A DNA stretch of 64,000 nt from Prolixibacteraceae bacterium (GTDB lineage: Bacteria > Bacteroidota > Bacteroidia > Bacteroidales > Prolixibacteraceae). Positions within the stretch are counted from its first letter, which is position 1. Each line of letters begins with the position of its first letter. Both the position numbers and the translations under genes were made by a program. Below, in pieces: positions 26,992 through 59,794 of this stretch. The DNA is taken from the NCBI GenBank assembly GCA_019459525.1, contig JAIBEY010000050.1:5588-69587 (forward strand), given 5' to 3'. The notes under the pieces are model-generated. The model worked only from the letters and a program-made list of their open reading frames with translations, had not been told where the DNA came from and searched no databases.

Positions 26992-28233
26992 ATGAGTCAA
27001 ATTGAACATGTAGATACCAGAGATATATCTGCTTCTGAGTTGAATAAAATCAAACAGAAGAAAAGAATTCTGAGCCTGCTGCACATGCACGGAAATATCT
27101 CTGCCCCCGAACTTAGCAAATGGCTTAGAATAAGTTTACCCACCTGCATTGCCTTAATGAATGACCTGATTGCTTCCGGATATGTAAAAAATATTGGGAT
27201 TGGCGAGTCAAGCGGCGGAAGAAAACCGAATCTCTACGGCCTGCCCGAAGATGGATTTTATGTGATTTCATGCGACTTTTCGCGCTACTATGCCAGCATG
27301 ACCATTTGCGACTGCTACAATAAATTTGTTACTCCAATTATTAAAATTGACACCCATATTGATGATCCGGAACTTGTTGAAAAATTGTTTCGGGCAGCTC
27401 AAAAACTACAGGAAGAAAATGGTATTCCGAATGAAAAAATTTACGGAGTAGGTGTGGACATGCCTGGGTTAATTGATTCCAAAGCTGGAATCAACTTCAC
27501 CATTAAAGATAAAAAATACCAGAACATTAGCCGGGACCTGAAAAAAAGGTTCAATAAACTGATTTATATCGACAACGATGCCCGGATGCACGCTTATGGC
27601 GAGTTTCATTTTGGAGCTGCCAAAGAATATAGAGACGCTATAATTATTCACTGGAGCTGGGGGCTTGGCCTTGGAATTTTTGTAAACGGACAACTTTACA
27701 GTGGTAACAATGGGTTTGCCGGAGAGTTCTCTCATATCCCGATGATTGAAAACGGGGATCTTTGCATTTGCGGTAAACGCGGATGTCTCGAAACCATAGC
27801 CTCCTCGAACACGATTATGAAGCGGGTTGCACAGGGATTCGAAGAAAATGAAATTTCCTCTTTAATTAACAAGTTTAAAGATCGCCCCGATCAGGTTACG
27901 CCTGAAGATGTGATTAGTTCAGCCCGCCAGGGCGATGAATTTTGTATCTCGATATTAAACGAAGTCGGGAAAGCTATGGGGAGAGGTCTTTCGTATATCA
28001 TTCAGTTATTAAATCCTCAGGTTATTGTACTTAGCGGCCCAATTTCAAAAGCGCGCCAATATGTGCTTTCGCCTGTTCAACAATCGCTAAACCGGTTGTG
28101 TCTGGAAAAAATTTCAGGGAACACAATTATTATTGTTTCCGACTTGGGCGATCAGTCGGCCTTACTTGGAACTTCCGAAATGGTTTTTCAGAAAGTGTTT
28201 ACAGAAATGAATTTTGAAGGACTAGCTCTATAA
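26992..28233 (+). CDS. ROK family transcriptional repressor
   Basis: N-terminal HTH with GESSGGRKP, IDNDA, GFAGEFSH and CICGKRGCLET. Confidence 0.95.
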   Translation: MSQIEHVDTRDISASELNKIKQKKRILSLLHMHGNISAPELSKWLRISLPTCIALMNDLIASGYVKNIGIGESSGGRKPNLYGLPEDGFYVISCDFSRYYASMTICDCYNKFVTPIIKIDTHIDDPELVEKLFRAAQKLQEENGIPNEKIYGVGVDMPGLIDSKAGINFTIKDKKYQNISRDLKKRFNKLIYIDNDARMHAYGEFHFGAAKEYRDAIIIHWSWGLGLGIFVNGQLYSGNNGFAGEFSHIPMIENGDLCICGKRGCLETIASSNTIMKRVAQGFEENEISSLINKFKDRPDQVTPEDVISSARQGDEFCISILNEVGKAMGRGLSYIIQLLNPQVIVLSGPISKARQYVLSPVQQSLNRLCLEKISGNTIIIVSDLGDQSALLGTSEMVFQKVFTEMNFEGLAL

Positions 28234-28282
28234 ATAAATTGAAGTGTGATTATTACTTATTATTTAATTTAAATTAAAACTT

Positions 28283-31200
28283 ATGCGAAAGGTTTTATTA
28301 TTGACTGTAATGTGCTTTGCTCTCTTAGGGAGTGCAATAGCACAGCAATCGGTATCCGGGACCGTTGTTTCCGAATCTGACGGACTTGGATTGCCAGGGG
28401 TAACAGTATCAGAAAAAGGAACCGGTAACGGTGCTCTTACTGATTCTGATGGTAAGTATTCCATTAAAGTGTCCTCAGGAAAAGCGACACTTGTGTTTTC
28501 GTTTATTGGAATGAAAACCGTTGAAGAACCAGTTAACAACCGGACTTCTGTTAACGTAAAAATGGCCTCTGAGGACATTGGCTTAGATGAAGTGGTGGTT
28601 ACCGCTTTGGGTATGAGCCGTGAGAAAAAAGCTCTTGGTTATGCAATGACAGAATTGAAAGGAAATGACATTGCAAAAATCAATGTCGTTAACCCAATCA
28701 ATGGACTTCAAGGAAAAGTCGCCGGGGTCCAGATCAATATGGGATCAGGCGGACCTCAGTCTGCAAACCGAATTTTGATTCGTGGTAACTCTTCTCTGGG
28801 AACAAACAACCAGCCTATTTTCGTTATCGACGGAGTAATTATTGACAACACAGTTACTGATAATGCAGAATGGGGCTCTACTCTTGACTTTGGTAATGAC
28901 ATTAAAAACTTAAACTCTGATGACTTTGAAACAGTTTCTGTTTTAAAAGGTGCCGCAGCAACTGCTCTTTATGGCTCTCGTGCTGCAAATGGTGTAATTC
29001 TTATCTCAACAAAAAAAGGAAAAAAAAGTGAAGGATTGGGAGTTAGCCTTTCACGGTCACAATCGTGGGACGATGTTTATGACTTTCCTGATTTCCAAAA
29101 CGAATATGGATCGGGTTTGTATCCTGCATGGCCTCTTAATACAGCCGGTCAGGAAGTTAGAAGCACTACTGAAACCTTAAACTTCGGACCTAAATTTGAC
29201 GGGCTGCCTTATACCAGAAGTGGGAAAGAGTACATCCATTCAGCAAAAGAAGATAATGTAATGCAGATGTATCAAACCGGAAAATATGAGAATACCAACG
29301 TTGCACTTCAAGGTGGTGACGATAAAGGAACCTTCCGTTTTTCATATTCCAATTTGAAATCTAATGGTGTAACTTTAAACAACGAATTTTCCAGAAATAG
29401 TTTTAGTTTAAACACAACCCGGCAAATCAGCTCCAGGGTTAAAGCTGACGGAGGATTTTCATGGGTATTTTCTGAATCACAAAACCCCGCCTACCAGGGA
29501 GGTAACAAATCTCCAATTTATGATTTTATGTATTCTGTTCCACGTGATTATGACACCGGATATTGGAAGCAGAATTACAAGAGTGCAAAAGGCGATGGAT
29601 ATAATGGCGCCGATCCTTATGGTTATTCAGCTACAATATTTGAATATCTGGAAAATAATTACACCCAGAATGAAAATAACTTAAGGGCTAATTTAAATGT
29701 GGATATTGCCCTTCAGGATTGGTTAGTCTTAAAACTAAAGGGAGATATGTACAAGTTATATACCACCCGCGAAAGCAAAATTCTGGCAACTGGCCAGAGC
29801 AACTATGATGGATCTAGCTATGCAGTTAACGAAAACAAAAAAGATCAGTACAAAATAACTGCAATGTTGAATGCCTTTCACAAATTTGGGGATTTGAATG
29901 TTAATGGAACTGTTGCTATTGAACAATGGGATACCAAATCTGCTTATCACCGCACAAATTCAAGAAATGGATTACGTATTCCCGGACAGTTCGATATGTC
30001 TAATTCGGTTTCCGATCCTCAAACAACTGTAAAAAAGGATACGGACAGAAAACGAATCAATTCGGCCTATGCTTTTGTTAACTTTGATTATAAAGGTGAA
30101 TTGTATCTTGATGTTACTGGCCGAAACGATTGGTCATCATCGTTAATCTACGCCAATGGAGATGGGGCTGTTTCTTATTTCTATCCATCAGTTGGTTCTT
30201 CTTGGATTATGACAGAAACATTGAGAGATGCCCTTCCTAATGTTATTTCGTTTGCAAAATTAAGAGCATCATATGCAATTGTAGGTAACGACTGTGCTCC
30301 TTATTTAACAAGTATCGGTTACTATACCTTAGGCGGAACATTTAAAAATCCAACAAACGGAACCGATTATCCTTATTACAATTACGACTCAGACGCACTG
30401 CGTAACCAAAATCTAAAACCAGAAAAACAACATTCGGTTGAGCTCGGTACAGAAGTGAAATTTTTCGACAATCGTTTGGGCTTTGACTTGGCTTGGTATA
30501 AAACAAATACAAAAAACCAAATCCTGGCTTTATCTCAAGCTTCTGAAAGTGGTGTCAGAAGTCGGTGGATTAATGCAGGAAATATCCAGAACCAAGGGAT
30601 TGAGTTCTCACTAAGTGCTACCCCTATTCAAACCAAGGACTTTTCTTGGGATATCAGCTGGAATATTACCCGGAATGTCAATGAAATTATTGAATTGGCT
30701 CCGGATGTTAATAAATATGCTATCGAGGGTGGTGGAATGGATATGACAGCTTATGCGACTGTAGGCGGTGCTTACGGAGATATCTACACCCCATACGCCT
30801 ATACTCGTGATGCTAATGGGAATAAAATATTGAATGCTGATGGTTCTTGGAAACGTTCCGGAACAACTGAAAAAGTTGGAACCCTGCAACCCGATTTTTT
30901 GAGTGGTGTATTCTCAAGCTTAAAGTATAAAAGCTTTGGTCTTGGCTTTGTTATTGACTCCCGCTTTGGTGGCGATATCGCTTCAGGAACATATAACTAT
31001 GGTTCATATTCTGGAGCTTTGGCTCATACCCTTTATGGTCGTGATACTCAATATGGCGGATTACCAAGAACTCTTTCTGACGGACGCGTACTAAACGACG
31101 GTATGATTCCTGATGGAGTTTTTGCTGAAGGTACAACCATTGGCGGCGTAAATGTTTCAGGCCAAACGTATCAGGAAGCATACGAAAAAGGTATTGTAAA

Positions 31201-31522
31201 ACCTATTTCAGCCCAACAATACTATACCAACAAGCATAGCTGGGGTACTGGTATCAGAGAAGAAACTGTATTGGAATGCTCTTGGATAGCTTTACGCGAA
31301 ATCACTTTCTCTTGGAGTCTTCCACGTAACTGGATGCAGAAAGTTTACATGCAAAATGTTAATGTAGGCCTCGTTGCCCGAAACTTAGGTTACTTATACA
31401 ACAGTTTACCTGACAATATTCACCCTGAAGGGCTGTCATCAAACAGAAGCTCAGCTTTCGTTGAGATCGGAGGATCAGCTTATACAAGAACTTTTGGTTT
31501 TAATATTAACGTTACATTCTAA
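28283..31522 (+). CDS. SusC/RagA family TonB-dependent outer-membrane transporter
   Basis: CarboxypepD-like N-terminus, LDEVVVTALG, VLKGAAATALYGSRAANGVILI, NLKPEK, and C-terminal FGFNINVTF. Confidence 0.97.
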   Translation: MRKVLLLTVMCFALLGSAIAQQSVSGTVVSESDGLGLPGVTVSEKGTGNGALTDSDGKYSIKVSSGKATLVFSFIGMKTVEEPVNNRTSVNVKMASEDIGLDEVVVTALGMSREKKALGYAMTELKGNDIAKINVVNPINGLQGKVAGVQINMGSGGPQSANRILIRGNSSLGTNNQPIFVIDGVIIDNTVTDNAEWGSTLDFGNDIKNLNSDDFETVSVLKGAAATALYGSRAANGVILISTKKGKKSEGLGVSLSRSQSWDDVYDFPDFQNEYGSGLYPAWPLNTAGQEVRSTTETLNFGPKFDGLPYTRSGKEYIHSAKEDNVMQMYQTGKYENTNVALQGGDDKGTFRFSYSNLKSNGVTLNNEFSRNSFSLNTTRQISSRVKADGGFSWVFSESQNPAYQGGNKSPIYDFMYSVPRDYDTGYWKQNYKSAKGDGYNGADPYGYSATIFEYLENNYTQNENNLRANLNVDIALQDWLVLKLKGDMYKLYTTRESKILATGQSNYDGSSYAVNENKKDQYKITAMLNAFHKFGDLNVNGTVAIEQWDTKSAYHRTNSRNGLRIPGQFDMSNSVSDPQTTVKKDTDRKRINSAYAFVNFDYKGELYLDVTGRNDWSSSLIYANGDGAVSYFYPSVGSSWIMTETLRDALPNVISFAKLRASYAIVGNDCAPYLTSIGYYTLGGTFKNPTNGTDYPYYNYDSDALRNQNLKPEKQHSVELGTEVKFFDNRLGFDLAWYKTNTKNQILALSQASESGVRSRWINAGNIQNQGIEFSLSATPIQTKDFSWDISWNITRNVNEIIELAPDVNKYAIEGGGMDMTAYATVGGAYGDIYTPYAYTRDANGNKILNADGSWKRSGTTEKVGTLQPDFLSGVFSSLKYKSFGLGFVIDSRFGGDIASGTYNYGSYSGALAHTLYGRDTQYGGLPRTLSDGRVLNDGMIPDGVFAEGTTIGGVNVSGQTYQEAYEKGIVKPISAQQYYTNKHSWGTGIREETVLECSWIALREITFSWSLPRNWMQKVYMQNVNVGLVARNLGYLYNSLPDNIHPEGLSSNRSSAFVEIGGSAYTRTFGFNINVTF

Positions 31523-31534
31523 GACAGCAACCAT

Positions 31535-33217
31535 ATGAAGACGCTTAAAATATCAATATTTTTACTCGTTGCGAGTTTGTTTTCATTAACACACTCCAGT
31601 TGTACTGATGAGTTTGTTGAAGTTAACAGCAACAGTAGCACTGTTTACAAGGTAGATCCTGTAAGCTTAATCTATAATGTTCAAACGAACACCCGAAGCA
31701 GTTCATGGGAATGGTACTATGACTATTATACCGCTCAGATGAGATGGATGCAGTATGGCTGTAGGGTTATTGGAAATACACCAACTGTTTATACGATCTG
31801 GAACCCGAATATTGGAGCCCAGCGCTATAGTAACTGTTGGATTAACACAGGTTCATATGCCCGCCATATCGAATATTACGTTCAAAGTAATATGCCAGAG
31901 GAGGCAGCGTCTTATTCTAACCTCATTGAAGCGGCAAAAGTTACTTTGATTTATCAAGGTATCATAACATCTGATTTTCATGGATCTCTAGCATATACCG
32001 AAGGATGGAATGCCCGTTCCGGAGGAGACATTACCGATCCTAAATTTGAAAGTCAGCAAGAACTTTATACGATCTGGGATGCTGAATTAAAAAATGCAAT
32101 CAGTAAATTCAAGACAAACACCAACCAAAAATCTATGGTAGGTTACGATATGGCATACAATGGCGATATCAATGGCTGGATTAAAGCTGCAAATGCATTA
32201 AGGTTGCGTATTGCTCTTCGGTTAATGAAACGCGATATTACAAAGGCAAAACAGATTGCAACAGAAGTTTTGGCTACAACTTCAGATCTTCCTGCGAAAA
32301 ACGAAGATGGATTTATTTTTTGGCTCGAAGGAAAATATTCTGAAAATGGGGACTACTATTCTATTAACGATTTAATCAGGGCATCAAAAGGTATGATGAA
32401 CTATTTAAATAAATACAATGACCCCCGTAAAAGAATGTTCTTCCGAATCAATAACCTTACTCCTGAAAATGTAGCTGAATACAATACCGGTCTTGCAGCT
32501 GACAAACAAATTCCAACTACATGGGGACGATGGGAAGGTGGAACTGCCAATACAGACGGCGGAGCTGCTGACAGGAAGTATGAACGGAACGTATTGGATC
32601 CAAGTGGAAGAGCAATTAGTATGCAAGCAGTAAACTTACCACAAACACGTATTTTTGCTGGCTCGTATGATAAAGGTTCTGGTGGTACTTGGTTTCCTAA
32701 TGTTACTTATCCAGACTTCTGTTTTATGGCTGCTGAATTTGTTTTAAATGGAGTTAGCAGTAATAAATCTGCCGAAGAGTGGTACACCAGTGGTGTTCGT
32801 GGATCTCTTGATTTATGGAATAAAGTTGGTGATTTCTGCAAAGTTCATGACTATGTACCGATGTCAGAGACCGAAATCACCACATTTATGAATCAGGAAG
32901 ACATTAAGTGGAACCCGGCCAAAGGATTGGAACAAATTTATTGTCAATCTTATATCGAACATTTCAAAAACTCGAACGAAGGTTGGGCTTTATGGAAAAG
33001 AACCGGCTATCCAACAACATCTTCGATTGTTGCCCTTGAAGATGTGTATGTGGGTGGTGTAAAACAAAATATGCCAAGACGTTCAAGGTTTACTATTCCG
33101 TTGGAAGGTACACCTAACTACCAAAATATGAAAGCTCGTATTGAGGATATGGCAAAAGATGCTGACTTTGGAGATATGTCAAGTGAATATGGCAGAATCT
33201 GGTGGGATAAAAAATAA
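31535..33217 (+). CDS. SusD/RagB family surface lipoprotein
   Basis: Lipobox SSC, WIKAANALRLRIALR, EGWALWKRTGYP and RIWWD. Confidence 0.93.
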   Translation: MKTLKISIFLLVASLFSLTHSSCTDEFVEVNSNSSTVYKVDPVSLIYNVQTNTRSSSWEWYYDYYTAQMRWMQYGCRVIGNTPTVYTIWNPNIGAQRYSNCWINTGSYARHIEYYVQSNMPEEAASYSNLIEAAKVTLIYQGIITSDFHGSLAYTEGWNARSGGDITDPKFESQQELYTIWDAELKNAISKFKTNTNQKSMVGYDMAYNGDINGWIKAANALRLRIALRLMKRDITKAKQIATEVLATTSDLPAKNEDGFIFWLEGKYSENGDYYSINDLIRASKGMMNYLNKYNDPRKRMFFRINNLTPENVAEYNTGLAADKQIPTTWGRWEGGTANTDGGAADRKYERNVLDPSGRAISMQAVNLPQTRIFAGSYDKGSGGTWFPNVTYPDFCFMAAEFVLNGVSSNKSAEEWYTSGVRGSLDLWNKVGDFCKVHDYVPMSETEITTFMNQEDIKWNPAKGLEQIYCQSYIEHFKNSNEGWALWKRTGYPTTSSIVALEDVYVGGVKQNMPRRSRFTIPLEGTPNYQNMKARIEDMAKDADFGDMSSEYGRIWWDKK

Positions 33218-33235
33218 TATTATTTTTTAGTTATA

Positions 33236-33270
33236 GAAAAGAGGTTACCCATTCAGGGTAGCCTCTTTTC
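33236..33270 (+). terminator. Intrinsic terminator after susD-like gene
   Basis: GAAAAGAGGTTACCC-loop-GGGTAGCCTCTTTTC. Confidence 0.8.
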
Positions 33271-33429
33271 GGATTTATACCTAAGACAATGTAAGCAGAA
33301 TAAAAAATATGGCTATTTCACTATAAACCATAAAACGCATTTCATTTCTACACTCCCACTCATCTTTCAGAAATAACACTGAAAGTAATTTCATCAATAC
33401 AACACAGCATTTTATTTAACCGATCGAAT

Positions 33430-35160
33430 ATGAAAATTACACAAATAAAAATCACTATTCTTCTGCTAACGTTTGAATTACTAACTTTAATATCGTTTGC
33501 TACACCTAAAAAAAACGCTGAACAACTTGAAGTAATATACCAAACTGTAGTGAACGGAAAAACCCGTCCCGATGGTCCGAAAAGCAAAGTTTTGTGTTCG
33601 GCTACAGCTTCCCGTTCGTGGGTTGAAAGCGATGACAAAAAGTTACTGCCTACAGTGGCCAAAGAAACCAGTTATGTCGATTACAGCGCACAAAAAACGT
33701 TTCAGCTTGCCCGCTTTTCCGACGGGAAAGTTATTCATACACCAACGACATTTTCAGAATATCCGGTGTTTACCGAGACCGGAGAAACTGCTGTAATTCT
33801 GGGCTATAACTGCAAACACCTCAAAACTTCACTCCGCTCCAATTCCATCGACATTTGGTACACGACCGAACTTGGGGTAAAAGGAACACCGGCAATGGGC
33901 TACGGAATTCCGGATGGATTGGTGCTGAAAATCGTAAGAAACGGCAATTACGAAATTGTAGCTACCGACATCAAACCCCTGAAGAAAAAAGATAGCGAAT
34001 CAATCTTGCCTGACCACATGGGCGAAAGTCTGGAGCTATCCTTATACAAACACCGAATCACCGAAAACCTGATTACAACCATACCTGTTTTCAACAACGA
34101 ACAAATCAGTTTCGGCAATGAAATCATCAACCCTACCGACCTGGAATCGGAAAAAACATTTAAATATTCGGCAGGAACGGTAATCCTTAAGAAAGTAAAA
34201 CTCCCGGTAGTACCCGACGACACCCAGCTTTTCGTTGAACTCCATCAGCATTCTGCCGGCGACGCTTACGACCGAACCGGCTCGGTGTTTATGATCCCTC
34301 TGGACAAAGAGCAGTCGTTTCTGGATGGCTTGCGCAACGGGACGAAAACGATGCCAACGATTCAGGCCCGAAATGGCAAATCGTACCAGGGCATGGTGGC
34401 TAACGATAAATTTTCTCCGTTGGTTGAAATCATGCGTTTTTTCACCTCATTCGGGATCGGCCAGTTCAACGACAAAGTGACTGTTTACGGCCAACAGTGG
34501 GAAGACTCCACGCTTTACAAACAAGATGTAACCGAACTTTTACCAGTTCTCCAGGGCGAACGCTGGATTGGCGTTTTTATTGGCAACTACGACAAAGGCG
34601 GTCACCGGGTGAGCCTGAAACTGAAATATTACCCCGGCAGCATGGAAGTTTCGGAAAAACCAGCAAAAAGATACTGGACGATGCCTTTGTTCAATACATT
34701 GAATGTGATGGAAATGTCGGGTCAGGAATACGGAACCATGTTCGAAAACGATTCACTGAAGGTGGACTTTGAAGTGCCTTCAGGAGTAAAAAATGTACAA
34801 ATGCGGTACATAACTACCGGCCACGGTGGTTGGGGCGGTGGCGACGAATTCAACCAAAAACAGAATACTGTTATCCTCGACAACCAGGTGTTATTTCAAT
34901 TTACACCCTGGCGAAGCGACTGTGCAACTTTCCGGCAATACAATCCGGCATCGGGTAACTTTTGGAATGGGGTAACATCGAGCGATTACAGCCGTTCGGG
35001 ATGGTGCCCCGGAACAGCCACCAATCCGGTCTATTTCCCCGTTTCAAATCTAAATCCCGGGAAACATCAGATTAAAGTGGCCATCCCGTTGGGCAAGAAC
35101 GAAGGTGGCAGTTTTAGCTCCTGGAATGTTTCGGGCGTGTTGATTGGTGAATACAAATAA
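33430..35160 (+). CDS. Peptide-N-glycosidase F family protein with an N-terminal GLPGLI-like domain (PNGase F-II architecture)
   Basis: GDAYDRTGS, EIMRFFTSFG, TTGHGGWGGGDEF and SRSGWCPG. The N-terminal ILGYNCK...IWYT...GIPDGLVL segment is GLPGLI-like. Confidence 0.9.
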   Translation: MKITQIKITILLLTFELLTLISFATPKKNAEQLEVIYQTVVNGKTRPDGPKSKVLCSATASRSWVESDDKKLLPTVAKETSYVDYSAQKTFQLARFSDGKVIHTPTTFSEYPVFTETGETAVILGYNCKHLKTSLRSNSIDIWYTTELGVKGTPAMGYGIPDGLVLKIVRNGNYEIVATDIKPLKKKDSESILPDHMGESLELSLYKHRITENLITTIPVFNNEQISFGNEIINPTDLESEKTFKYSAGTVILKKVKLPVVPDDTQLFVELHQHSAGDAYDRTGSVFMIPLDKEQSFLDGLRNGTKTMPTIQARNGKSYQGMVANDKFSPLVEIMRFFTSFGIGQFNDKVTVYGQQWEDSTLYKQDVTELLPVLQGERWIGVFIGNYDKGGHRVSLKLKYYPGSMEVSEKPAKRYWTMPLFNTLNVMEMSGQEYGTMFENDSLKVDFEVPSGVKNVQMRYITTGHGGWGGGDEFNQKQNTVILDNQVLFQFTPWRSDCATFRQYNPASGNFWNGVTSSDYSRSGWCPGTATNPVYFPVSNLNPGKHQIKVAIPLGKNEGGSFSSWNVSGVLIGEYK

Positions 35161-35254: not shown

Positions 35255-35650
35255 GGGGCTGACTGGTTTTGACAGCGGGTAGAAGAGGTATGTAAGCATG
35301 TCGGGCCTTGATCGCACAGCCCGTTAATCTCGGCGGTCGAACCACAATTGGCGAAAATAACTACGCTCTTGCTGCGTAATCGAACTAAGTAGATTACACT
35401 TTATTCCGGCACCAGGTGCTGGAACGAGACATCGCCCGGGTGCTACTTCCCTGAAGCGGCCCGATCAGGCGGTGCAAATAAATCGGGGATAGTGGAAGTC
35501 TTGCTTCGGGATTTCTGCAAAATTAAGAAGCTAAGGTAAAAGTCGGTGGCCCTGATCCAGCTTTTATTCGAAAACCAAGTCTGGGGATAAACATGTAGAA
35601 AGCGTATTGCTTCCTCGTTTGGACGCGGGTTCGACTCCCGCCAGCTCCAC
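35255..35650 (+). ncRNA. ssrA: tmRNA; tag peptide (A)GENNYALAA* at 35350-35379
   Basis: 5' GGGGCTGACTGGTTTTGACAG, 3' GCGGGTTCGACTCCCGCCAGCTCCA, and a typical Bacteroidota tag. Confidence 0.97.
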
Positions 35651-35653
35651 GCA

Positions 35654-35711: not shown

Positions 35712-38300
35712 CTATTCGTATCTGAAAACAATTTCGTCATTTTCAACATCGACTTTTACTTTAGTGCGATTCTCCATTCGTCCGGAAAGGATTTCCTTCG
35801 ATAAATCGTTAATCAGATATTTCTGAAGCATTCGTTTAACTGGGCGCGCACCGTGTGTTGGGTCGTAGCCCACTGCCGCCAGCCAGTCAATCGCGTCTTC
35901 CGATATTTCAATGGTAAACTGATTATTCGGAATCCGCTGTAAAATCAGGTTAAACTGCAGGTTCACAATATTCCGCACATCTTTACGTGTCAATGGTGTA
36001 AACATGATCACTTCGTCAATCCGGTTCAGAAATTCAGGCGAAATGGTTTTCCGGAGCAGATCGAACAAATCGGTACGGGTTTGTTCCTCGATCTGCGCAT
36101 GGTTTCGTTCGTTCATTTGCTCGAAACGATCCTGAATCAAATGCGATCCGATGTTGGATGTCATAATGATGATCGTATTCTTAAAATTGGCAACCCGTCC
36201 TTTGTTGTCAGTCAACCGACCATCGTCAAGCACCTGAAGCAACACGTTAAAAACATCAGGATGGGCCTTTTCAATTTCGTCGAAAAGGATTACCGAATAA
36301 GGTTTCCGGCGAACGGCTTCGGTCAGTTGCCCACCTTCGTCGTATCCCACATATCCGGGAGGCGAACCAATGAGACGGGTCACCGAGAACTTCTCCTGGT
36401 ATTCCGACATATCAATGCGGGTCAGCATATTTTCGTCGTCGAACAGAAATTCGGCCAGAGCTTTGGCCAGTTCGGTTTTCCCAACACCAGTAGTTCCCAG
36501 AAAGATGAATGAACCAATGGGTCGTTTTTCGTCCTGAAGCCCTGCCCTACTCCGCCGTACGGCATCGGCCACTGCACGTATTGCTTCCTGCTGCCCCACT
36601 ACCCGTTGATGCAACTCATCTTCGAGGTGCAATAATTTTTCGCGTTCGCTCTGTAGCATCCGCGATACAGGAATGCCCGTCCACCGCGAAACAATTTGCG
36701 AGATATCCTCAGCATCAACCTCTTCCTTAATCAGGTGCTGCGCCTTATTGTTACTTAATTCCGTTTTTAATTTTTCGATTTCCACTTCAGCCTCACCAAT
36801 TTTACCATACCTGATTTCGGCCACACGGCCAAAATCTCCGGAGCGTTCGGCCTGTTCTGCTTCCAGCTTTAATGATTCAATTTCCTGTTTCTTTTGCTGA
36901 ATACCATCGATCAGCGATTTTTCGAGTTGCCACTGTGCCCTGAACTTCGATTGTTCCTGTTTCAGGTTAGCAATTTCTTCGTTCAGAACCGAAAGCTTCT
37001 TTTCGTCTTTTTCGCGCTTAATAGCTTCCCTCTCTATTTCCAACTGCATAATTTTGCGGTCAATTTCATCCAGTTCCTGTGGTACCGAATCCATCTCCAG
37101 GCGCAAACGTGCAGCAGCTTCGTCCATCAAATCGATGGCTTTATCCGGAAGAAAACGTTCGGTAATGTAGCGTTGCGACAGCTCTACCGACGCAATAATA
37201 GCCTCATCTTTAATCCTGACTTTGTGGTGGTTTTCGTAGCGTTCCTTCAAACCGCGAAGAATTGAAATTGCGCTCAATGTATCTGGCTCATCAACCGTTA
37301 CAATCTGGAAACGGCGTTCCAATGCTTTATCTTTCTCGAAATATTTCTGGTATTCATTTAGCGTGGTTGCGCCAATAGCCCGGAGTTCTCCGCGCGCCAA
37401 TGCCGGCTTCAGAATATTGGCCGCATCCATAGCACCATCGCTTTTTCCGGCACCCACCAACGTGTGAATCTCGTCGATAAACAGCACGATTTCACCATTC
37501 GCTCCAATCACTTCGTTGACAACGGCTTTCAGTCGTTCCTCAAATTCACCTTTGTATTTTGCCCCGGCAATTAATGCCCCCATGTCGAGCGAAAAGAGTT
37601 GTTTCGATTTCAGATTTTCGGGCACATCGCCCCGAACAATTCGCTGGGCCAAACCTTCGGCAATCGCCGTTTTTCCTGTTCCGGGTTCTCCGATCAGGAT
37701 CGGGTTATTTTTAGTTCTCCGCGATAAAATCTGCAGAATACGTCGTATTTCGTCATCACGGCCAATCACCGGATCGAGTTTCCCATCGCGGGCACGCTGA
37801 TTCAGGTTTACGGCAAAACGGTTAAGCGAATCAAATTTATCTTCGGCGCTCTGGCTGTCAACCTTGGCACCCTTCCGGAGTTCCTTCACCGCAATTTCAA
37901 GCTCTTTCTGTGTCACTCCTGAATCTTTCAGCATCCGGCTAATGGTATCGCCTGTTTCAAGCAAACCCATCAAAATGTGTTCGACCGACACAAATTGGTC
38001 GTTCATGTCCTGCATGATGGCAATTGATTTTTGCAATGCTTTATTGGCATCCGACGATAAATAAGCTTCACCTCCGGTAACTTTGGGATACGACTCTACA
38101 ATCCGGTCAAGCGCCTGCTGAATGACAACCGGGTTTGTTCCGAGTTTTTTCAGTAAAAATCCAACCACATTCTCGGCTTCATGAAACAGTCCCTTTAAAA
38201 TATGCCCTGTTTCAATTGCTTGCTGTTGTTTTCCCTGAGCCACAACAAACGCATGTTGTATGGCTTCCTGTGATTTAATAGTAAAATTATTGAAGTTCAT
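35712..38300 (-). CDS. clpB: ATP-dependent chaperone ClpB
   Basis: Two AAA modules ([16 protein letters not shown]), a middle coiled-coil domain, and [17 protein letters not shown]. Confidence 0.98.
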
Positions 38301-38601
38301 ATTTGAGTAATTTGTTTTTTAATTGTCTCATGGAACTCACCCGAAAATCGGGATGCGTTTCACATTTTCTGTTTTTATTGTTTCTGATTAAATACATGGA
38401 CGGATTCCTTCAAATGTTTAGCCAATGTTTTTAACCCTTGCATAACCGACAAATTGGCTGCTTACGGTTCCTTATACGGAAGTTTTTTCAGAAGGAATGA
38501 AAATTAAATGGAAATTTTGACATAATAAATGGGATTACGAAACTCGCCTACCCAACAAGTATAGTTACGCCAATCCTCAGGTTTATCTGGCATACGGGAA
38601 A

Positions 38602-38691
38602 TAAAAAAGGGATGAATTACTCCACCCCTTTTCTCACAAAACCAAATCTATTTCTATGAAAAAAAACTAACCTCTTATTTTTCTATTGTAC
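38602..38691 (-). ncRNA. Candidate sRNA, paralog 1
   Basis: Promoter TACCTTTG (minus strand, 38696-38703), core UUUUUUCAUAGAAAUAGAUUUGGUU, and terminator hairpin with U-tract (38603-38632). Confidence 0.7.
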
Positions 38692-38772
38692 GATTCAAAG
38701 GTACGGCGAATTAAAGTTAACACATCTGAATCAACGTTAAAGAACCTTAAATCTGGCTGGATAAATAATGAA

Positions 38773-38866
38773 CAAAAAAAGGATGGCCCCAACCATCCTT
38801 TTCTACCTAACCAAACCTATTTCTATGAAAAAAACCTAAAATGTGTATTACTTACTAAAAATCTAT
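38773..38866 (-). ncRNA. Candidate sRNA, paralog 2
   Basis: Promoter TATCTTTG (minus strand, 38871-38878), core UUUUUUCAUAGAAAUAGGUUUGGUU, and terminator AAAAGGATGG/CCATCCTTTT with U-tract. Confidence 0.7.
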
Positions 38867-39233
38867 GCAACAAAGATACGGCAGCGAACCGTTAACAGGT
38901 ATGAAGGATAGTTAAGGAATGTTAAGATTTTCAGAAACACGACTTCGTTACAATTTTCTGTACATGAATGAAATAGTCGGAATATACCACGCCAGTTAAA
39001 CCACAATCCCGTACGTTAAATTAAAGTTAAGAAAGTGCTTTTAGCTTCATAAACGAATATATATATTTGTAGCCATTACAGACAAAAACAAAATCGATAC
39101 TTGTTCGTTTGACTATGGGGTTAAATCAAAAGCATAAAAAACAATAAGAAACAACCTCCAGTCACCGAAACTTAGTTCACAAAATACTAACAAACAACAG
39201 ATTATACATCAATAATCCATAAATTAACACTCT

Positions 39234-41957
39234 ATGACAAAGTACGTTTACACGTTTGGAAATGGTGCAGCTGAAGGAAAGGCTGACATGAAGAATTTAC
39301 TTGGAGGTAAAGGTGCAAACCTTGCTGAGATGAACCTCATCGGAGTTCCGGTTCCTCCGGGATTTACCATCACCACTGAAGTGTGTACCATTTACAATAA
39401 ACTGGGTCGTGAAAAAGTTATCGAACTTCTTAAAACTGACGTTGAAGCTGCTATTGCCCAGGTGGAAAGACAAACCGGTGGAAAATTCGGCGATGCTTCC
39501 AATCCGCTTTTGGTTTCAGTACGTTCGGGTGCACGCGCTTCTATGCCCGGAATGATGGATACCATCCTGAACCTCGGTTTGAATAATACCGTAGTGGAAG
39601 GAATGGCTAAAAAAACCGGAAATCCACGTTTCGTTTGGGATAGCTACCGTCGTTTTGTACAAATGTACGGCGATGTGGTTCTTGATATGAAACCCACTTC
39701 AAAAACGGATATTGACCCCTTCGAAGAAATTCTGGAAGAAGTTAAACACGAAAAAGGAGTAATTAACGACAACGAACTTTCAGTAGAAGCTTTACAAGAA
39801 TTGGTTGTAAAATTTAAAGCAGCAGTTAAAGCCAAAACGGGTCACGATTTCCCCGAAAGTTCATGGGATCAACTTTGGGGTGCTGTTTGTGCCGTATTCA
39901 ACAGCTGGATGAACGACCGTGCCATTTATTACCGCCAGTTAAACCAGATTCCTGAAGAATGGGGAACTGCTGTTAACGTACAGGCTATGGTATTTGGGAA
40001 CATGGGCCTTACTTCAGGAACTGGAGTTTGCTTTAGCCGCGACGCCGGAACCGGTGAAAACATGTTCAACGGCGAATATTTGATCAATGCCCAGGGCGAA
40101 GACGTGGTGGCCGGTATCCGTACCCCACAGCAAATTACCCTCGAAGGTTCAAAACGCTGGGCCGAACTGGCTGGTGTTTCTGAAGCTGACCGTGCAGCCA
40201 AATATCCTTCTCTCGAAGAATCAATGCCAGAAATGTACAGGGAGTTATTCGATATTCAGAATAAACTCGAAAAGTACTTTACCGACATGCAAGACATGGA
40301 GTTCACCATTCAGGAAGGTAAAATGTGGATGTTGCAAACCCGCAACGGAAAACGTACCGGCGCAGCCATGGTTCAAATTGCCATCGACATGCTGAAAGAA
40401 GGCCTGATTGATGAAAAGACTGCACTACTCCGCGTTGAACCCAACAAATTAGACGAGTTATTACACCCTGTATTCGATAAAAAAGCGATTAAAGCTGCCC
40501 GTGTATTAGCGAAAGGACTACCGGCCTCCCCGGGAGCTGCAACCGGACAAATCGTATTCTTTGCAGACGAGGCAGAAGAATGGGTAGCACAAGGCAAAAG
40601 CGTGGTTTTAGTTCGTATAGAAACTTCTCCGGAAGACCTTCGTGGGATGAACGTAGCCAAAGGTATTTTAACTGCACGTGGGGGTATGACTTCGCACGCT
40701 GCGGTTGTTGCCCGCGGAATGGGTAAATGTTGTGTATCGGGAGCTGGAGCCCTCCAAATTGACTACAAAGCCCGCACCATGATTGTTGACGGGAAAATGT
40801 TCAAAGAAGGTGATTTCATATCGCTGAACGGAACCACCGGGGAAGTTTACGAAGGTAAAATTGCTACGATCGATCCGGAATTGAGCGGCTATTTTGGAGA
40901 ACTGATGACAATTGCCGACAAATACAAACGCATGAGTGTACGTACCAATGCCGATACTCCCAAAGATGCCCAGATCGCACGTAATTTCGGGGCACAAGGT
41001 ATTGGATTAACCCGTACCGAGCACATGTTCTTTGAAGGCGAACGCATTAAAGCCATGCGCGAAATGATTTTAGCCGACGATGTTACCGGACGCGAAAAAG
41101 CGCTCGAAAAACTGTTGCCAATGCAGCGTAGCGATTTCGAAGGTATTTTTGAAGCGATGGCTGGCTACGGCGTAACCATTCGTTTGCTCGATCCGCCGTT
41201 GCACGAATTTGTTCCTCACGAAGAAGCTAATCAGCTCGAAATGGCTAAAGAAATGGGCATTTCGGTTGAGCAGGTAAAACATAAAGTAGAATCACTGCAC
41301 GAATTTAACCCGATGTTGGGTCACCGTGGGTGCCGTTTGGGTATCACCTATCCTGAAATTACAGCCATGCAAGCCCGTGCCATCATTGAAGCTGCTCTTA
41401 ACCTGAAAGCCAGGGGTGTTGATGCCCGTCCGGAAATTATGGTTCCGCTGGTAGGCACAGTTGCTGAATTGAAAAACCAGACCGACATCATTCGTAGTGT
41501 AGCCGAAAAAGTGTTTGCTGAAAAAGGCGACCGCATCGACTACCAGGTAGGTACCATGATAGAAATTCCACGTGCTGCATTAACAGCCGACCACATTGCT
41601 GCCGAAGCTGATTTCTTCTCATTCGGGACCAACGATTTAACCCAGATGACTTTGGGTTACTCGCGCGACGATGCCGGCAAATTTCTACCCGATTACCTCA
41701 ACCGTGGCATCCTGAAACAAGATCCTTTCCAGATATTGGATCAGAACGGCGTTGGTCTGCTGGTTGAAATCGGTGTTACCCGTGGCCGCATGACCAAACC
41801 CAATCTGAAAGTGGGTATTTGCGGCGAACACGGCGGCGAACCAAGCTCTGTTGAATTCTGCGACAAAGTGGGTATGAGCTACGTAAGCTGTTCGCCTTAC
41901 CGCGTGCCGATTGCACGTTTGGCTGCCGCTCAGGCAAATATTAAACACAGTAAATAA
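39234..41957 (+). CDS. ppdK: Pyruvate, phosphate dikinase
   Basis: [40 protein letters not shown] (phospho-His), [21 protein letters not shown] and GICGEHGG. Confidence 0.98.
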
Positions 41958-47435: not shown

Positions 47436-50400
47436 GTGATTCAGCACCTGAAACAAATTTTATTTTGTGGATTTTTACTCCTGATCCTGCAAACCCAGGC
47501 CTCGGAACCTTACCGCCCCCAATTGGCCAATCCCGTTTTGGAACCCTGGCGCTGGATCGAATTCCCGGAATTTGACACCATCCGGATTTCGTGCGTGACA
47601 AAAGAAAAAGAAGGTGGAATGTGGATGGGAATTGGCAATAAAGCCGTTTTTTTTAACGGATACAAATCCATCAGGTTTATTCCTGACAGCAGCGCCATCC
47701 ACTCGATGGTTATTGAGAAAGATAACAATCTGCTTGCAACCACATCAAACGGAATTTTCAGGTATAAAGAAGGCGAATTCCGCAAAATACTCGATTTCAC
47801 TTTTAGTGGACAGCGAAACTTTATTACCGATTCGAAAGGGCATGTTTGGATTGGCTCCGACTTTGGATTGCTGCGAATTACTCCGCAAACAATTTTCTGT
47901 CTCAACCCGCAAGGCTATTTCGAAATCGACAGCAACGGTTTGGTGATTAAAACCCTGAAACTGGAAGCGGCAAACGACTATCACCCCAACTCCGTTACTG
48001 AAACAAAATTTCCTGTTTATAACCTTACCATCAATACGCAACAACGCGTTTGGATGACGATCGGCGAGCCAACTAAAAACCTTGCGAACATCAACCTGAA
48101 TGAGCTTTCAGGCGCTTCGGTAAAATGGAAATACCAGAAGATACCAGGCATTGAAACCTGGAGTGTTTCGGGACTTTGCGAAGCCAACAATTCGCTATAC
48201 ATAACCACCAGCGACGTAAATATCATGCTAGCCCGTTACCAGATTGATGCCGATAAGTGGGAAAAGATTAACATGAAAGCGATTGGCGGCGATAATGTTC
48301 AGTCTTCGATCCTGAAAACCCCTGACGGAACACTTTGGATTGGCGGACACAGCAAACTATACGCATTGAAAGATTCGGGCTGGAAAGTTTACCAGTACCC
48401 TGAAGTAGCGCTACCACTTTCCTACATCGAACTAACTCAGGACCAGGAGGAAAATTTGTTTATTTTCGGGAACGACGGCAGTTTGTTAAAATTCGATCTG
48501 TCGCCGCGGAACTTTTGTACCTGGCAGGGGCTCAACTTCCAGTGCAATTCGGCCGACGGGAAATACTGGTTTACCACCAATACCGGCAAAGTTGTTGAAT
48601 GTGACCCGGACATGCAAAAATTTACCCGCCATTCGGTCACCGACGGATTGATGGATATGGCCATGGCGATGCACTTTTCAGAAAAAAGTGGGTTGTGGGC
48701 AGCCGGGAGCCATCGCGGCAAAGCTGCTATTGCCCGTTTCAGAAACGGGAAATGGGAAAACACGTTATTTCCCGAATTATATCTCGGAATAGCTTACAAC
48801 GGAATCTGCGAATTAGGCGATTCGGCCCTGGCTTTTCCGGTAAATGGGCTGCTCGAATTGGGCAATACCAATTATAACGGAGGTTTTGTATGTTACAATT
48901 ATAAACGATCGGAATGGGAAGCCGTTACCCGTGAGAAAGTTCCGCAACGTATTCCTTCAATGGGGCAAACCTCCGATGGCAGGCTTTGGTTCTCCGGAGG
49001 CGAATTTAATGTTTACGATGGAAACACCAGCCAGAAAGTTGATTTGCAGGTAAAAGCAACCAGTTGGACTGACGATGTGCGGATTTCGCCAACCGACCGG
49101 ATTTGGGCAGCACAAGGCGGAACGGGCTTGTTTTACAATGATGGCAAAAAATGGATCCGATATACTACGTTTAATGGTTTAGCCAGCAATATGGTAACCA
49201 ATGTTTACATCGAAAACGACAGCGCGGTTTATATTGCCTCCGATAAAGGCATCTCGTTTTACGATGGCAAACAATTTATCAGGCAAATTATTCATCCGGA
49301 ACTGAATATACAGCGGGAACGCGGCCATTTAAAATTATCAGACAATGGCGCACTGTGGATTAACCAAGGCACACGCGAATGGTATTTGTACGATTTCAAA
49401 TCGATTACCGAAGATCCAACGATATTTAAAACCACGATGTACCTCCGTGGAAATAAAGCGCCGGTAACAACTATTTCATTTTCAAATCAGGAAATTTCTT
49501 CGTCGGGAAACGTAATTATTACCTACAATGGAATTGACTATTTCAATAGTACGTCTCCCGAAAAAATCCAATTCTCCTATCGGCTAAACAACGAAGCATG
49601 GTCGCCCTTTTCCGAAGAAAAATCGAGCGTTTTTCTGGATTTGGATCCCGGCGATTATACGATGGAAGTCAGGGCCCGCGATCTCGACCGGAACATTGAA
49701 GCGGTTCCAGCACAAATTTCGTTCAGCATACTGCCACCAGTTTATTTACGTTTCTGGTTTATCCTAACCATATTTACCTTTATCGGCATTATCGTTTGGT
49801 TGTTGCTCAGGCTCTATGCGCGCGACAAGCAAATCCACGAGCTCGACCAATTAAAACTGCGGCTTTTTACCGATATCTCACACGAGCTAAAAACCCCTCT
49901 GACCCTGATTTCTCTTCCCCTTCAGAAATTACTGAACAAGGCTGACCGGCAAAACGAAACCAAAGATAGCCTGGAACTGATTTACACCAACGTGCAACGA
50001 CTAACTAACCTCGTGAATCAAGTGGTCGATTTCAGGCGTTTGGAAGCCGGAAAAATTCAGTTGGAAATAAGTCCGGGCGACCTGACGCTGCATTTGCGCA
50101 ACATCGCCAATTATTACCTGCCACTGGCGCACGAAAAAAATATTCAATTTGTGTTTACCTGCAACTGCCGCGATTTATGGGTTAAATACGATGCCGACAA
50201 ACTCGAAAAAATCGTGGTTAACCTGTTATCAAATGCCTTTAAATATACTCCTGAAAATGAAAAGGTGGAACTGATTGTACACATTGAAGAACCGGCAGAA
50301 AAACTTCAGCTTTGGGTAAACGACTCAGGACCAGGAATTCCGAAAGAAATGCAGCAGAACGTTTTCGACCGTTTTTACCGGCTACGCAACGAAAAACTAA

Positions 50401-59651: not shown

Positions 59652-59794
59652 GGTTGTTACAGTTAGATTATACATAAATTGGCAAGGCTAAGATATTGAA
59701 ACCACATGGTTAAACAACTTGAAATTGACTAAAAATTATCACGGTTTCTTCGCCAAATACCTTAAATTCGTTAATCATTTAACAAACAGAAAAT

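Follow-up and report, generated by a model that had tools for sequence, protein, structure and literature searches.

Two tandem units between clpB and ppdK

We report on two minus-strand elements, named units A and B, in a 64 kb window (the whole stretch of DNA analysed) from a Prolixibacteraceae bacterium, which the NCBI taxonomy places in the order Marinilabiliales of the class Bacteroidia. Both units are housed in the 933-nt intergenic region between clpB and ppdK, and an original prediction, made from the letters of the sequence, had taken them for paralogous small RNA (sRNA) genes with a conserved core that is the antisense of an AUG-AAA-AAA start region. The sequence of the window is present in DNA runs from groundwater, wastewater, bioreactor and freshwater metagenomes. 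The two flanking genes and the parts of the units are given below in the order of the plus strand.

35712-38300, minus strand: clpB, an open reading frame (ORF) of 862 amino acids (aa) with ClpB domains (Pfam)
38598..38639, minus strand: unit B spacer UUGUGAG, terminator hairpin at 38633-38604 (GGGGUGG/UCAUCCC) and U-tail
38640-38663, minus strand: unit B core of 24 nt, TTTTTCATAGAAATAGATTTGGTT
38640..38667, minus strand: unit B core with seed, GUUUUUUUUCAUAGAAAUAGAUUUGGUU; match to Rfam family RF04319 at 38667-38598, and 69.5 bits with the covariance model R1 described below
38668..38690, minus strand: unit B variable leader, predicted; RNA-derived contigs from unit A run through it
38696..38703, minus strand: unit B -7 promoter box TAccTTTG (gccgTAccTTTG), preceded by gccg
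38771..38808, minus strand: unit A spacer AGGU, terminator hairpin at 38804-38775 (GGAUGG/CCAUCC) and U-tail
38809-38832, minus strand: unit A core of 24 nt, TTTTTCATAGAAATAGGTTTGGTT
38809..38835, minus strand: unit A core with seed, GUUUUUUUCAUAGAAAUAGGUUUGGUU; match to RF04319 starts at 38835, contig 5' ends at 38835/38836
38836..38865, minus strand: unit A variable leader, from the predicted start at about 38865 to the core; mostly missing from RNA-derived contigs
38871..38878, minus strand: unit A -7 promoter box TAtcTTTG (gccgTAtcTTTG), of the Bacteroidota TAnnTTTG type, preceded by gccg
39234-41957, plus strand: ppdK, an ORF of 907 aa with pyruvate phosphate dikinase domains (Pfam)

On the whole, the sequence features of the original prediction are all found at their places, namely two minus-strand units, the TAnnTTTG box in its gccg context, a near-identical core and terminator stems that diverge. 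The two units share the exact core TTTTTCATAGAAATAG(R)TTTGGTT, and the 24-nt core has exactly two matches in the 64 kb even with up to three mismatches (<=3), as against 0 in 100 shuffles. A repeat finder returns a 31-nt repeat with 94% identity between the units and recovers both hairpins as well. Between the -7 box and the core lie about 35 nt of A/U-rich sequence in unit A, where the core GUUUUUUUCAUAGAAAUAGGUUUGGUUAGGU starts at 38835, and about 28 nt in unit B, where (A)GUUUUUUUUCAUAGAAAUAGAUUUGGUUUUGUGAG starts at 38667. Counted from the start of the seed, unit A measures 65 nt (38835-38771) and unit B 70 nt (38667-38598), with 3' ends predicted from the terminators. Both hairpins fold stably, and in the centroid fold the seed is unpaired in unit A and partly paired in unit B.

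Distribution and conservation of the units

We scanned one genome per species, 185,579 species in total, for the exact 21-mer core TTTTCATAGAAATAGNTTTGG. The scan returns 40 loci, four of which are chance matches in other phyla, and the recurrence expected for the core is thus borne out in 36 species-level genomes. The carriers are the Prolixibacteraceae genera Draconibacterium, Mangrovibacterium, Sunxiuqinia, Maribellus and Puteibacter, together with co-linear metagenome-assembled genomes (MAGs), of which a few bear wider or different labels. No genome has the core at more than one locus in this exact-core scan, and this holds for four chromosome-scale records of 4.6-6.5 Mb as well. When the ClpB and PpdK of the window are searched with tblastn, the units are shown to lie between clpB and ppdK in nearly every locus with enough flank, at protein identities from ~95% to ~75%, and in the loci checked they have the orientation of clpB, pointing away from ppdK. 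Two MAG contigs with typical units carry distant labels, CAMDGL010000239.1 (locus L040, 'Chitinophaga pinensis'), the PpdK of which is 94% identical to that of the window, and CAYRBM010000237.1 (locus L037, 'Odoribacter sp.'); these bins are probably mislabelled or contaminated.

The covariance model R1, built from 38 units and used with a cut-off of E < 1e-5, finds 73 units in 35 sources, arranged in arrays of one to five units, with two in the window and five each in L006 and L019. Two types recur among the loci: the A type has GGUUAGGU with a GGAUGG/CCAUCC stem, and the B type, nearest to clpB, has GGUUUUGUGAG with a GGGGUGA/UCAUCCC stem. As both types recur across loci, the two units of the window are old tandem paralogues rather than the product of a recent duplication. 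All 73 units keep the block UUUUUCAUAG(A), among them many that were recovered with the model and not with the exact pattern. After the block come 0-5 additional nucleotides, UA(G/A)NUUU and finally GGUU.

The terminator helix is 92.6% paired over the family, with two-sided changes at 11 of its 13 pairs; none of 500 shuffles reaches the observed values, and controls in which the helix is slid along the alignment are only 51-80% paired. These pair counts come from an alignment fitted to the covariance model, which favours structure. Independently of the model, all 38 distinct tails (38/38) fold as a hairpin, with stems as different as CAGAGAU/GUCUCUG, ACAAGGA/UCUUGU and GGAAGAC/GUCUUCC. RNAalifold on a MAFFT alignment gave a meaningless structure, the terminator arms being out of register between genera, and the model-based alignment was used instead.

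Read on the plus strand, the core gives ATGAAAAAAACCTAA (MKKT*) and ATGAAAAAAAACTAA (MKKN*), so that both units of the window contain the 4-codon mimic ORFs pointed out in the original prediction, and the conservation might come from translation of plus-strand micro-ORFs or from a plus-strand mimic of a start site. Across 55 units of the family, the 4-codon ORF recurs in no more than 25, the rest having 5 to >37 codons of unrelated sequence, while the promoter and the terminator are both features of the minus strand, and the orientation of the sequencing adapters (see below) puts the RNA on that strand too. The micro-ORF explanation is therefore largely refuted, and we give it hardly any credence.

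Three further units deserve mention for their form. In Draconibacterium aestuarii, the unit at L015:588-678 (minus strand) comes after the apparent 3' end of a coding region. It lacks a promoter box close upstream, neither clpB nor ppdK is in its locus, and it may be a copy derived from a 3' untranslated region (UTR), like FopS-14 in B. thetaiotaomicron. In Puteibacter, the unit at L027:40-110 (plus strand) has a partly duplicated seed, with TTTTTTCATAG occurring twice, and in the unit at L009:4797-4888 (plus strand) GGTTAG stands three times in a row after the seed.

Promoters and phased TTAAC boxes

The regions upstream of the units are also conserved. Below we list the TTAAC boxes of the window, where positions such as -17 are counted from the first T of the -7 box and frequencies refer to 54 distinct upstream regions.

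38716..38720, minus strand: unit B proximal TTAAC box, -17
38736..38740, minus strand: unit B TTAAC box, -37
38891..38895, minus strand: unit A proximal TTAAC box, -17, at the site of the would-be -33 element; present in 48/54
38911..38915, minus strand: unit A middle TTAAC box, -37; present in 45/54 in the alignment
38921..38925, minus strand: unit A distal TTAAC box, -47 (GTTAA at 38921 on the plus strand); present in 24/54
38995..39030, minus strand: orphan TTAAC group (GTTAA at 38995, 39015 and 39026 on the plus strand), with a degenerate -7 box after it and no sRNA core

A TAnnTTT(G) box stands 5' of all 54 distinct units, and the U-run mostly lies 13-37 nt from this -7 box. The TTAAC boxes are spaced 20 and 10 nt apart, which places them on one face of the helix. 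The pattern TTAAC-N11-13-TAnnTTTG occurs twice in the window, each time at a unit; in the Prolixibacteraceae loci the two-box pattern has 67 matches, at positions consistent with a place just 5' of the units, as against one in ~1 Mb of unrelated viral loci. In the same sense, the plus strand of the 933-nt intergenic region holds nine GTTAA, compared with 1.4 per kb over the window. Judging by this sequence pattern, the phased boxes are probably the site of a dedicated transcription factor overlapping the -33 position.

Two other readings of the promoter were tried and rejected. For an extracytoplasmic function (ECF) sigma factor recognising TTAAC…CGTA, the spacing from AAC to CGT is ~10 nt, while 16-17 nt is usual, and a second, more proximal -7-like box (TAgaTTTT, 38865-38858) is not kept in relatives. 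The orphan TTAAC group is 85% identical over 20 nt to the promoter region of unit B (repeat D3); it may be what is left of a third unit, or a control site that the divergent promoter of ppdK (TAtaTTTG, 39062-39069) also uses.

Transcription of the units

The RNA evidence consists of assembled contigs of public runs rather than reads, and gives no 3' ends. Contigs from six metatranscriptome runs of two studies cover the units, and in five of the six runs they stop abruptly at the adapter AGATCGGAAGAGCACACGTC. Their ends at unit A are as follows.

38835: 5' end of contigs from X28 (depth 133, 0 mismatches) and X32, joined to the adapter
38836: end of the contig from X30, with no adapter
38840: 5' end of the contig from X31, joined to the adapter
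38845: 5' end of contigs from X29 and X60, joined to the adapter

In the same libraries, the adapter is joined to the high-coordinate side of the clpB 5' ends on the minus strand (38344 and 38378) and to the low-coordinate side of the ppdK 5' end on the plus strand (39087). The orientation at the units matches that of clpB and is opposite to that of ppdK, showing that the adapter marks RNA 5' ends, as in a stranded library, and that the RNA of the units is on the minus strand; the minus-strand transcripts foreseen by the original prediction are thereby seen. Each unit has its own promoter and terminator, is transcribed and non-coding, and carries a conserved seed, as is proper to the general class of intrinsically terminated trans-acting sRNA genes of bacteria.

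The position of the 5' end is of interest in itself. The contigs of the six runs give no coverage at 38848-38900, and the Rfam match to FopS begins at 38835, while the start predicted from the box (~38865) is 20-30 nt further upstream. At ppdK, which serves as a control, only about 11 nt are lost between the box (39062-39069) and the contig end (39087), and so loss in the library alone does not explain the gap at unit A. Thus the units of ~90 nt proposed at first stand as units, though their variable 5' part of 22-30 nt is mostly absent from the contigs, the 5' boundary falling at 38835-38845. The abundant RNA is therefore probably ~65-75 nt long, rather than ~90 nt, and begins with the seed or close to it. 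Either the variable leader would be removed at the conserved UUAG|G junction, or transcription would start at a site outside the prediction from the promoter consensus.

On the 3' side, contigs pass terminator A and some also terminator B, reaching 38707, 38620 and 38472. Since the units lie upstream of clpB, in the same direction in the loci checked, and the contig of X31 continues towards clpB, they could be taken for a cis-acting leader or attenuator of clpB, in which the conserved core would be a sensor or a protein-binding site and read-through into clpB would occur under some conditions. However, every unit has its own promoter and a strong U-tailed terminator, the number of units varies from one to five, and the copy at L015 has no clpB in its locus. 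In addition, clpB has 5' ends of its own (38344/38378), with a contig depth 20 to several hundred times that over the units. Only fragments from read-through are long enough to survive standard library preparation; sRNAs of ~65 nt would be lost in such libraries, so that read-through molecules may perhaps be all that was captured. We consider the leader explanation improbable.

Several other runs were set aside as evidence of transcription. Contigs from the 'METAGENOMIC RNA-Seq' runs (X9, X12-X14) extend over genes and spacers alike with even depth; the Draconibacterium-like metatranscriptomes X44-X47, with ends near the predicted start, have a depth of 2-8 and are too thin; and in the soil metatranscriptomes X55-X58, the contigs hold leader and promoter-like sequence and span two units, so that read-through and DNA carry-over are indistinguishable.

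Relation to FopS

At gathering scores, Rfam detects only a tmRNA gene in the window. In a permissive scan of 38300-39250 with Rfam 15, both units have RF04319 (FopS, 'family of paralogous sRNAs', BTncRNA_FopS) as their best match among 4227 families; the full model (positions 1-71) is matched by unit A with 36.3 bits (38835-38771) and by unit B with 28.6 bits (38667-38598). When the whole window is scanned permissively, the units are the only matches of RF04319 and score best after the tmRNA, and no Rfam family other than FopS matches them in the permissive scans.

FopS was described from B. thetaiotaomicron (Rüttiger et al. 2025, PMC11697453), which has 14 copies of 65-70 nt; in each of them there is a terminator, and the 5' seed (R1') is single-stranded. 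They are driven by a canonical sigma-ABfr promoter, and the seed pairs beside the start codon of susC mRNAs such as BT_3983, as found by in-line probing and by EMSA (an electrophoretic mobility shift assay) using compensatory mutants (PMC11697453). In vitro, FopS blocks translation, which is rescued by compensatory mutations, and the block is relieved by RbpB, a protein with an RNA recognition motif (RRM) that binds the 5' part of FopS (PMC11697453). FopS, which is also induced by bile salts, represses the N-glycan polysaccharide utilisation locus PUL72, and Bacteroides is reported to be without classical RNA chaperones (PMC11697453). By high-stringency megablast, the conservation of FopS was demonstrated within Bacteroidaceae, and within these only, with 12-15 copies per genome (PMC11697453).

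The units resemble FopS in several respects. Their layout agrees, with a probably unstructured 5' seed in which a U-run flanks CAU, a short spacer after it and an intrinsic terminator at the end, and from the observed 5' boundary they are ~65-70 nt long; both unit A and unit B have the hairpin with its U-tail and a total of 65-70 nt, as does FopS, the hairpin of which comes ~40 nt after the 5' end. The seeds are related (UUUUUCAU-G-A-UAG-UUU..GGUUA), the alignment of the units with RF04319 giving GUuUUUUUCAUaGaAaUAGgUUU--GGUUA, and the genuine FopS copies recovered include CAUAG variants as in Prolixibacteraceae. Both systems have promoters of the TAnnTTTG type, at different distances from the seed, and paralogous copies. 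Compared with the FopS R1' consensus GUGUUUUUCAUgGUAUUAGAUUU, the seed is related but not identical (GUUUUUUUCAUAGAAAUAGGUUU); the contig ends at 38835/38836 coincide with the seed, and those at 38840/38845, together with the position of the promoter, leave a short leader possible.

On the grounds of the sequence anatomy of the units, their conservation and minus-strand transcription, the covariation of the terminator and the likeness to FopS, we consider it likely, with moderate confidence, that the two units are tandem minus-strand sRNA genes which are distant relatives of FopS, FopS-like rather than curated members of the family, and act in trans as maskers of start regions. The best description of the units is that of a relative of FopS specific to Prolixibacteraceae, which sits at a single syntenic locus next to clpB, comes in tandem as types A and B, and has a promoter with TTAAC boxes and a variable leader missing from the RNA contigs. 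A search of the literature gave, among the matches listed, no paper naming both Prolixibacteraceae and sRNAs.

A number of observations weigh against this. Both units score below the gathering score of RF04319 (56 bits), which decides membership; the loci L002, L006, L019, L027 and L036 likewise give no match at that score, while genuine FopS copies reach 68.8-82.3 bits. The reciprocal search is marginal, the R1 model giving true FopS 22-35 bits against ~19-20 for chance matches, the latter in loci preselected by a 16-nt pattern, and this leaves room for convergence on an anti-start-codon seed. The units form one to five tandem copies at one clpB-ppdK locus, in contrast to the 12-15 dispersed copies of FopS, and their conserved -7 box stands 13-37 nt from the seed, whereas the FopS copies recovered from Bacteroides have it ending 4 nt ahead of GUG, where the RNA begins. 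The contigs lack 3' ends and run through both terminators, and with short RNAs probably lost, the discrete RNA of ~65 nt is a predicted one. As to targets in the window, the duplex energies of 41 gene starts average -13.6 kcal/mol, compared with -13.2 kcal/mol at random positions. The start of the susC-like gene at 28283 is not complementary to the seed, despite the parallel to the FopS-repressed PUL72, and the match at ppdK (UCUAUGAcAAAG) is weak and lost in Draconibacterium.

The most serious rival, as far as membership in FopS is concerned, is that the units are not homologous to FopS and form an independent sRNA family, which has converged on an anti-start-codon seed in genomes with A-rich starts and many exported proteins beginning with MKK. 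The low scores and the marginal reciprocal search speak for it, as do a promoter architecture (TTAAC boxes and leader), an arrangement of copies and a genomic context which all differ from those of FopS, as well as the conservation of FopS, reported for Bacteroidaceae alone. Nevertheless, the likeness is not confined to the anti-AUG-AAA part: UAGNUUU and GGUUA follow in unchanged order with almost identical spacing, and the terminator stands at an equal distance; the length agrees when counted from the observed 5' boundary, and RF04319 is the best of the 4227 families for both units, while nothing else in the window matches it. We thus hold convergence to be unlikely and prefer a distant relationship to FopS. 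The question of identity with a described family, raised by the original prediction, is answered in part: the units are related to FopS, but with scores under the Rfam threshold they are not simply equal to it. The multi-copy family that it proposed stands as far as paralogous copies are concerned, these forming a tandem array at one conserved locus and not a dispersed set of 12-15.

Further differences from FopS concern the host, which belongs to another order (Marinilabiliales) and to the environment rather than the gut, and the promoter, which has TTAAC boxes where the FopS promoters recovered from Bacteroides carry the usual -33 TTTG without TTAAC. GibS of B. thetaiotaomicron (PMC11697453), compared here by its description only, likewise has an R1-type seed against start regions and represses at translation initiation regions, but it has a second seed R2 and the non-canonical promoter PM2, and the units show no evident R2-like element.

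Among sRNAs of other phyla, the OmrA/OmrB, Qrr1-5 and Prr/RyhB pairs are similar in being tandem paralogues with a shared seed, a divergent remainder and their own promoter and terminator. They have no sequence relationship to the units and need Hfq, which is missing in Bacteroides and relatives. The usual rationale for such sibling sRNAs in other phyla is dosage or differential regulation.

FopS elements were also met on viral contigs. Many IMG/VR contigs (L041-L152) carry FopS or FopS-like elements, of which those in L047, L063, L116, L117 and L072 are genuine RF04319 with 69-82 bits, and this fits the published idea that FopS is spread by phages. A large group of phage variants has gugUUUUUCAUGGUAUUAGAUUU with a CCCCGCC…GCGGGG hairpin without U-tail and no long ORF on the opposite strand, and in at least L069 a FopS-like element stands directly 3' of a tRNA gene. 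That these phage matches are gene starts of the opposite strand was considered and rejected, as they have no long or conserved opposite-strand ORFs. Unit A itself has no BLAST match in GenBank phages.

Proposed mechanism and targets

Going by FopS, the most likely function of the units is that of trans-acting sRNAs masking UCUAUGAAAAAA-type start regions. In our best explanation, units A and B are independently promoted, terminator-ended sRNA genes and ancient tandem paralogues, probably switched on by a dedicated DNA-binding regulator that would recognise the helically phased TTAAC at -17, -37 and -47. Each RNA has a probably unstructured 5' part with the invariant block UUUUUUCAUAGA, then UAGNUUUGGUU, a short spacer and the intrinsic terminator hairpin. 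By analogy with FopS, we infer that a subset of mRNAs is bound by the seed at the translation initiation region (…UCU-AUG-AAA-AAA…), which would keep ribosomes from loading, and an RRM-type RNA-binding protein may modulate this pairing. Pairing, targets, protein partner, regulator and leader processing are thus all proposed parts of the scheme, and from its sequence the invariant block predicts targets with UCU-AUG-AAA-AAA.

In the window, the search for targets gives no candidate. Selected gene starts (those of the susC-like/susD-like/PNGase F cluster, GH36, ppdK and clpB) show no enrichment over background, and the local partial matches singled out in the original prediction (62732, the start of the GH36 gene, and ppdK) fare no better than background among the 41 gene starts. 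As a neighbouring target, ppdK was rejected: its start cUCUAUGAcAAAG pairs over 7+4 nt with -8.4 kcal/mol, which is weak, and reads UUUUAUG in Draconibacterium.

Another explanation is that the units serve mainly as decoys for an RNA-binding protein (RRM, RbpB-like), with the second conserved block (UAGGUUUGGUUAGGU) as the functional part. This might be suspected from the two conserved blocks, which are split by indels of 0-5 nt as if separately constrained, from the threefold GGTTAG in the unit of L009, and from the binding of RbpB to the 5' part of FopS. The most invariant block, however, is the anti-start-codon UUUUUCAUAG(A), and in the FopS system the protein antagonises base-pairing rather than being the end point. 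In addition, no RRM protein is found in the window, where the six-frame translation contains no RNP1-type motif, though the window has only 64 kb. The decoy explanation is very improbable, and masking of start regions by base-pairing is preferred.

Neighbouring genes

Other features of the window surround the two units. A tmRNA gene (35255-35652, plus strand; RF00023, 150.5 bits) adjoins the 3' end of clpB and lies just 3' of the PNGase F gene. The latter closes a PUL-like cluster (26992-35160, plus strand), in which a ROK-family regulator starts at 26992, a SusC-like TonB-dependent receptor of 1079 aa with a CarboxypepD_reg domain at 28283, a SusD-like protein at 31535 and PNGase F at 33430; this cluster, at a distance of ~3.5 kb from the two units, probably serves the utilisation of N-glycans. 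On the other side, a hybrid two-component protein of 1306 aa (47436-51356, plus strand) has a Reg_prop/Y_Y_Y sensor, HisKA, HATPase, a receiver and an AraC helix-turn-helix; it is of the usual PUL regulator type and lies near a glycoside hydrolase family 36 (GH36) alpha-galactosidase (57483-59675, minus strand). In the 5' UTR of ppdK (39194-39233; ppdK loci L001-L040), the motif atatcaataatcTATAAATT is kept ~15-35 nt 5' of the start codon in close relatives.

Significance for FopS-type regulation in Bacteroidia

Bacteroidia make little use of Shine-Dalgarno pairing. In gut Bacteroides, FopS has been known since 2025 as a hub in the control of polysaccharide utilisation, and the units would take this type of regulator beyond that gut family. 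A related sRNA in free-living Prolixibacteraceae of sediment, groundwater and wastewater would suggest that masking of start codons by a U-rich seed with CAU is general in Bacteroidia. The system is also simpler, with one locus, one to five copies and cultured carriers such as Draconibacterium orientale DSM 25947 (units at L002:4458-4764), so that knocking out all copies, which did not succeed in B. thetaiotaomicron, could become practicable, and its strictly conserved promoter with TTAAC boxes opens a direct way to the upstream signal of FopS-type sRNAs.

We put forward, tentatively and with rather low confidence, that an R1/FopS-type sRNA is ancient in Bacteroidia, older than the split of Bacteroidales and Marinilabiliales. 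Prolixibacteraceae would then keep a possibly ancestral form, with the tandem array beside clpB, the TTAAC regulator and the removal of the leader, and the 12-15 dispersed, phage-spread copies of gut Bacteroides would be a later expansion. If this is true, the masking of mRNAs for MKK-type exported and outer-membrane proteins would be a class-wide brake responding to stress or nutrients, and not an adaptation specific to the gut.

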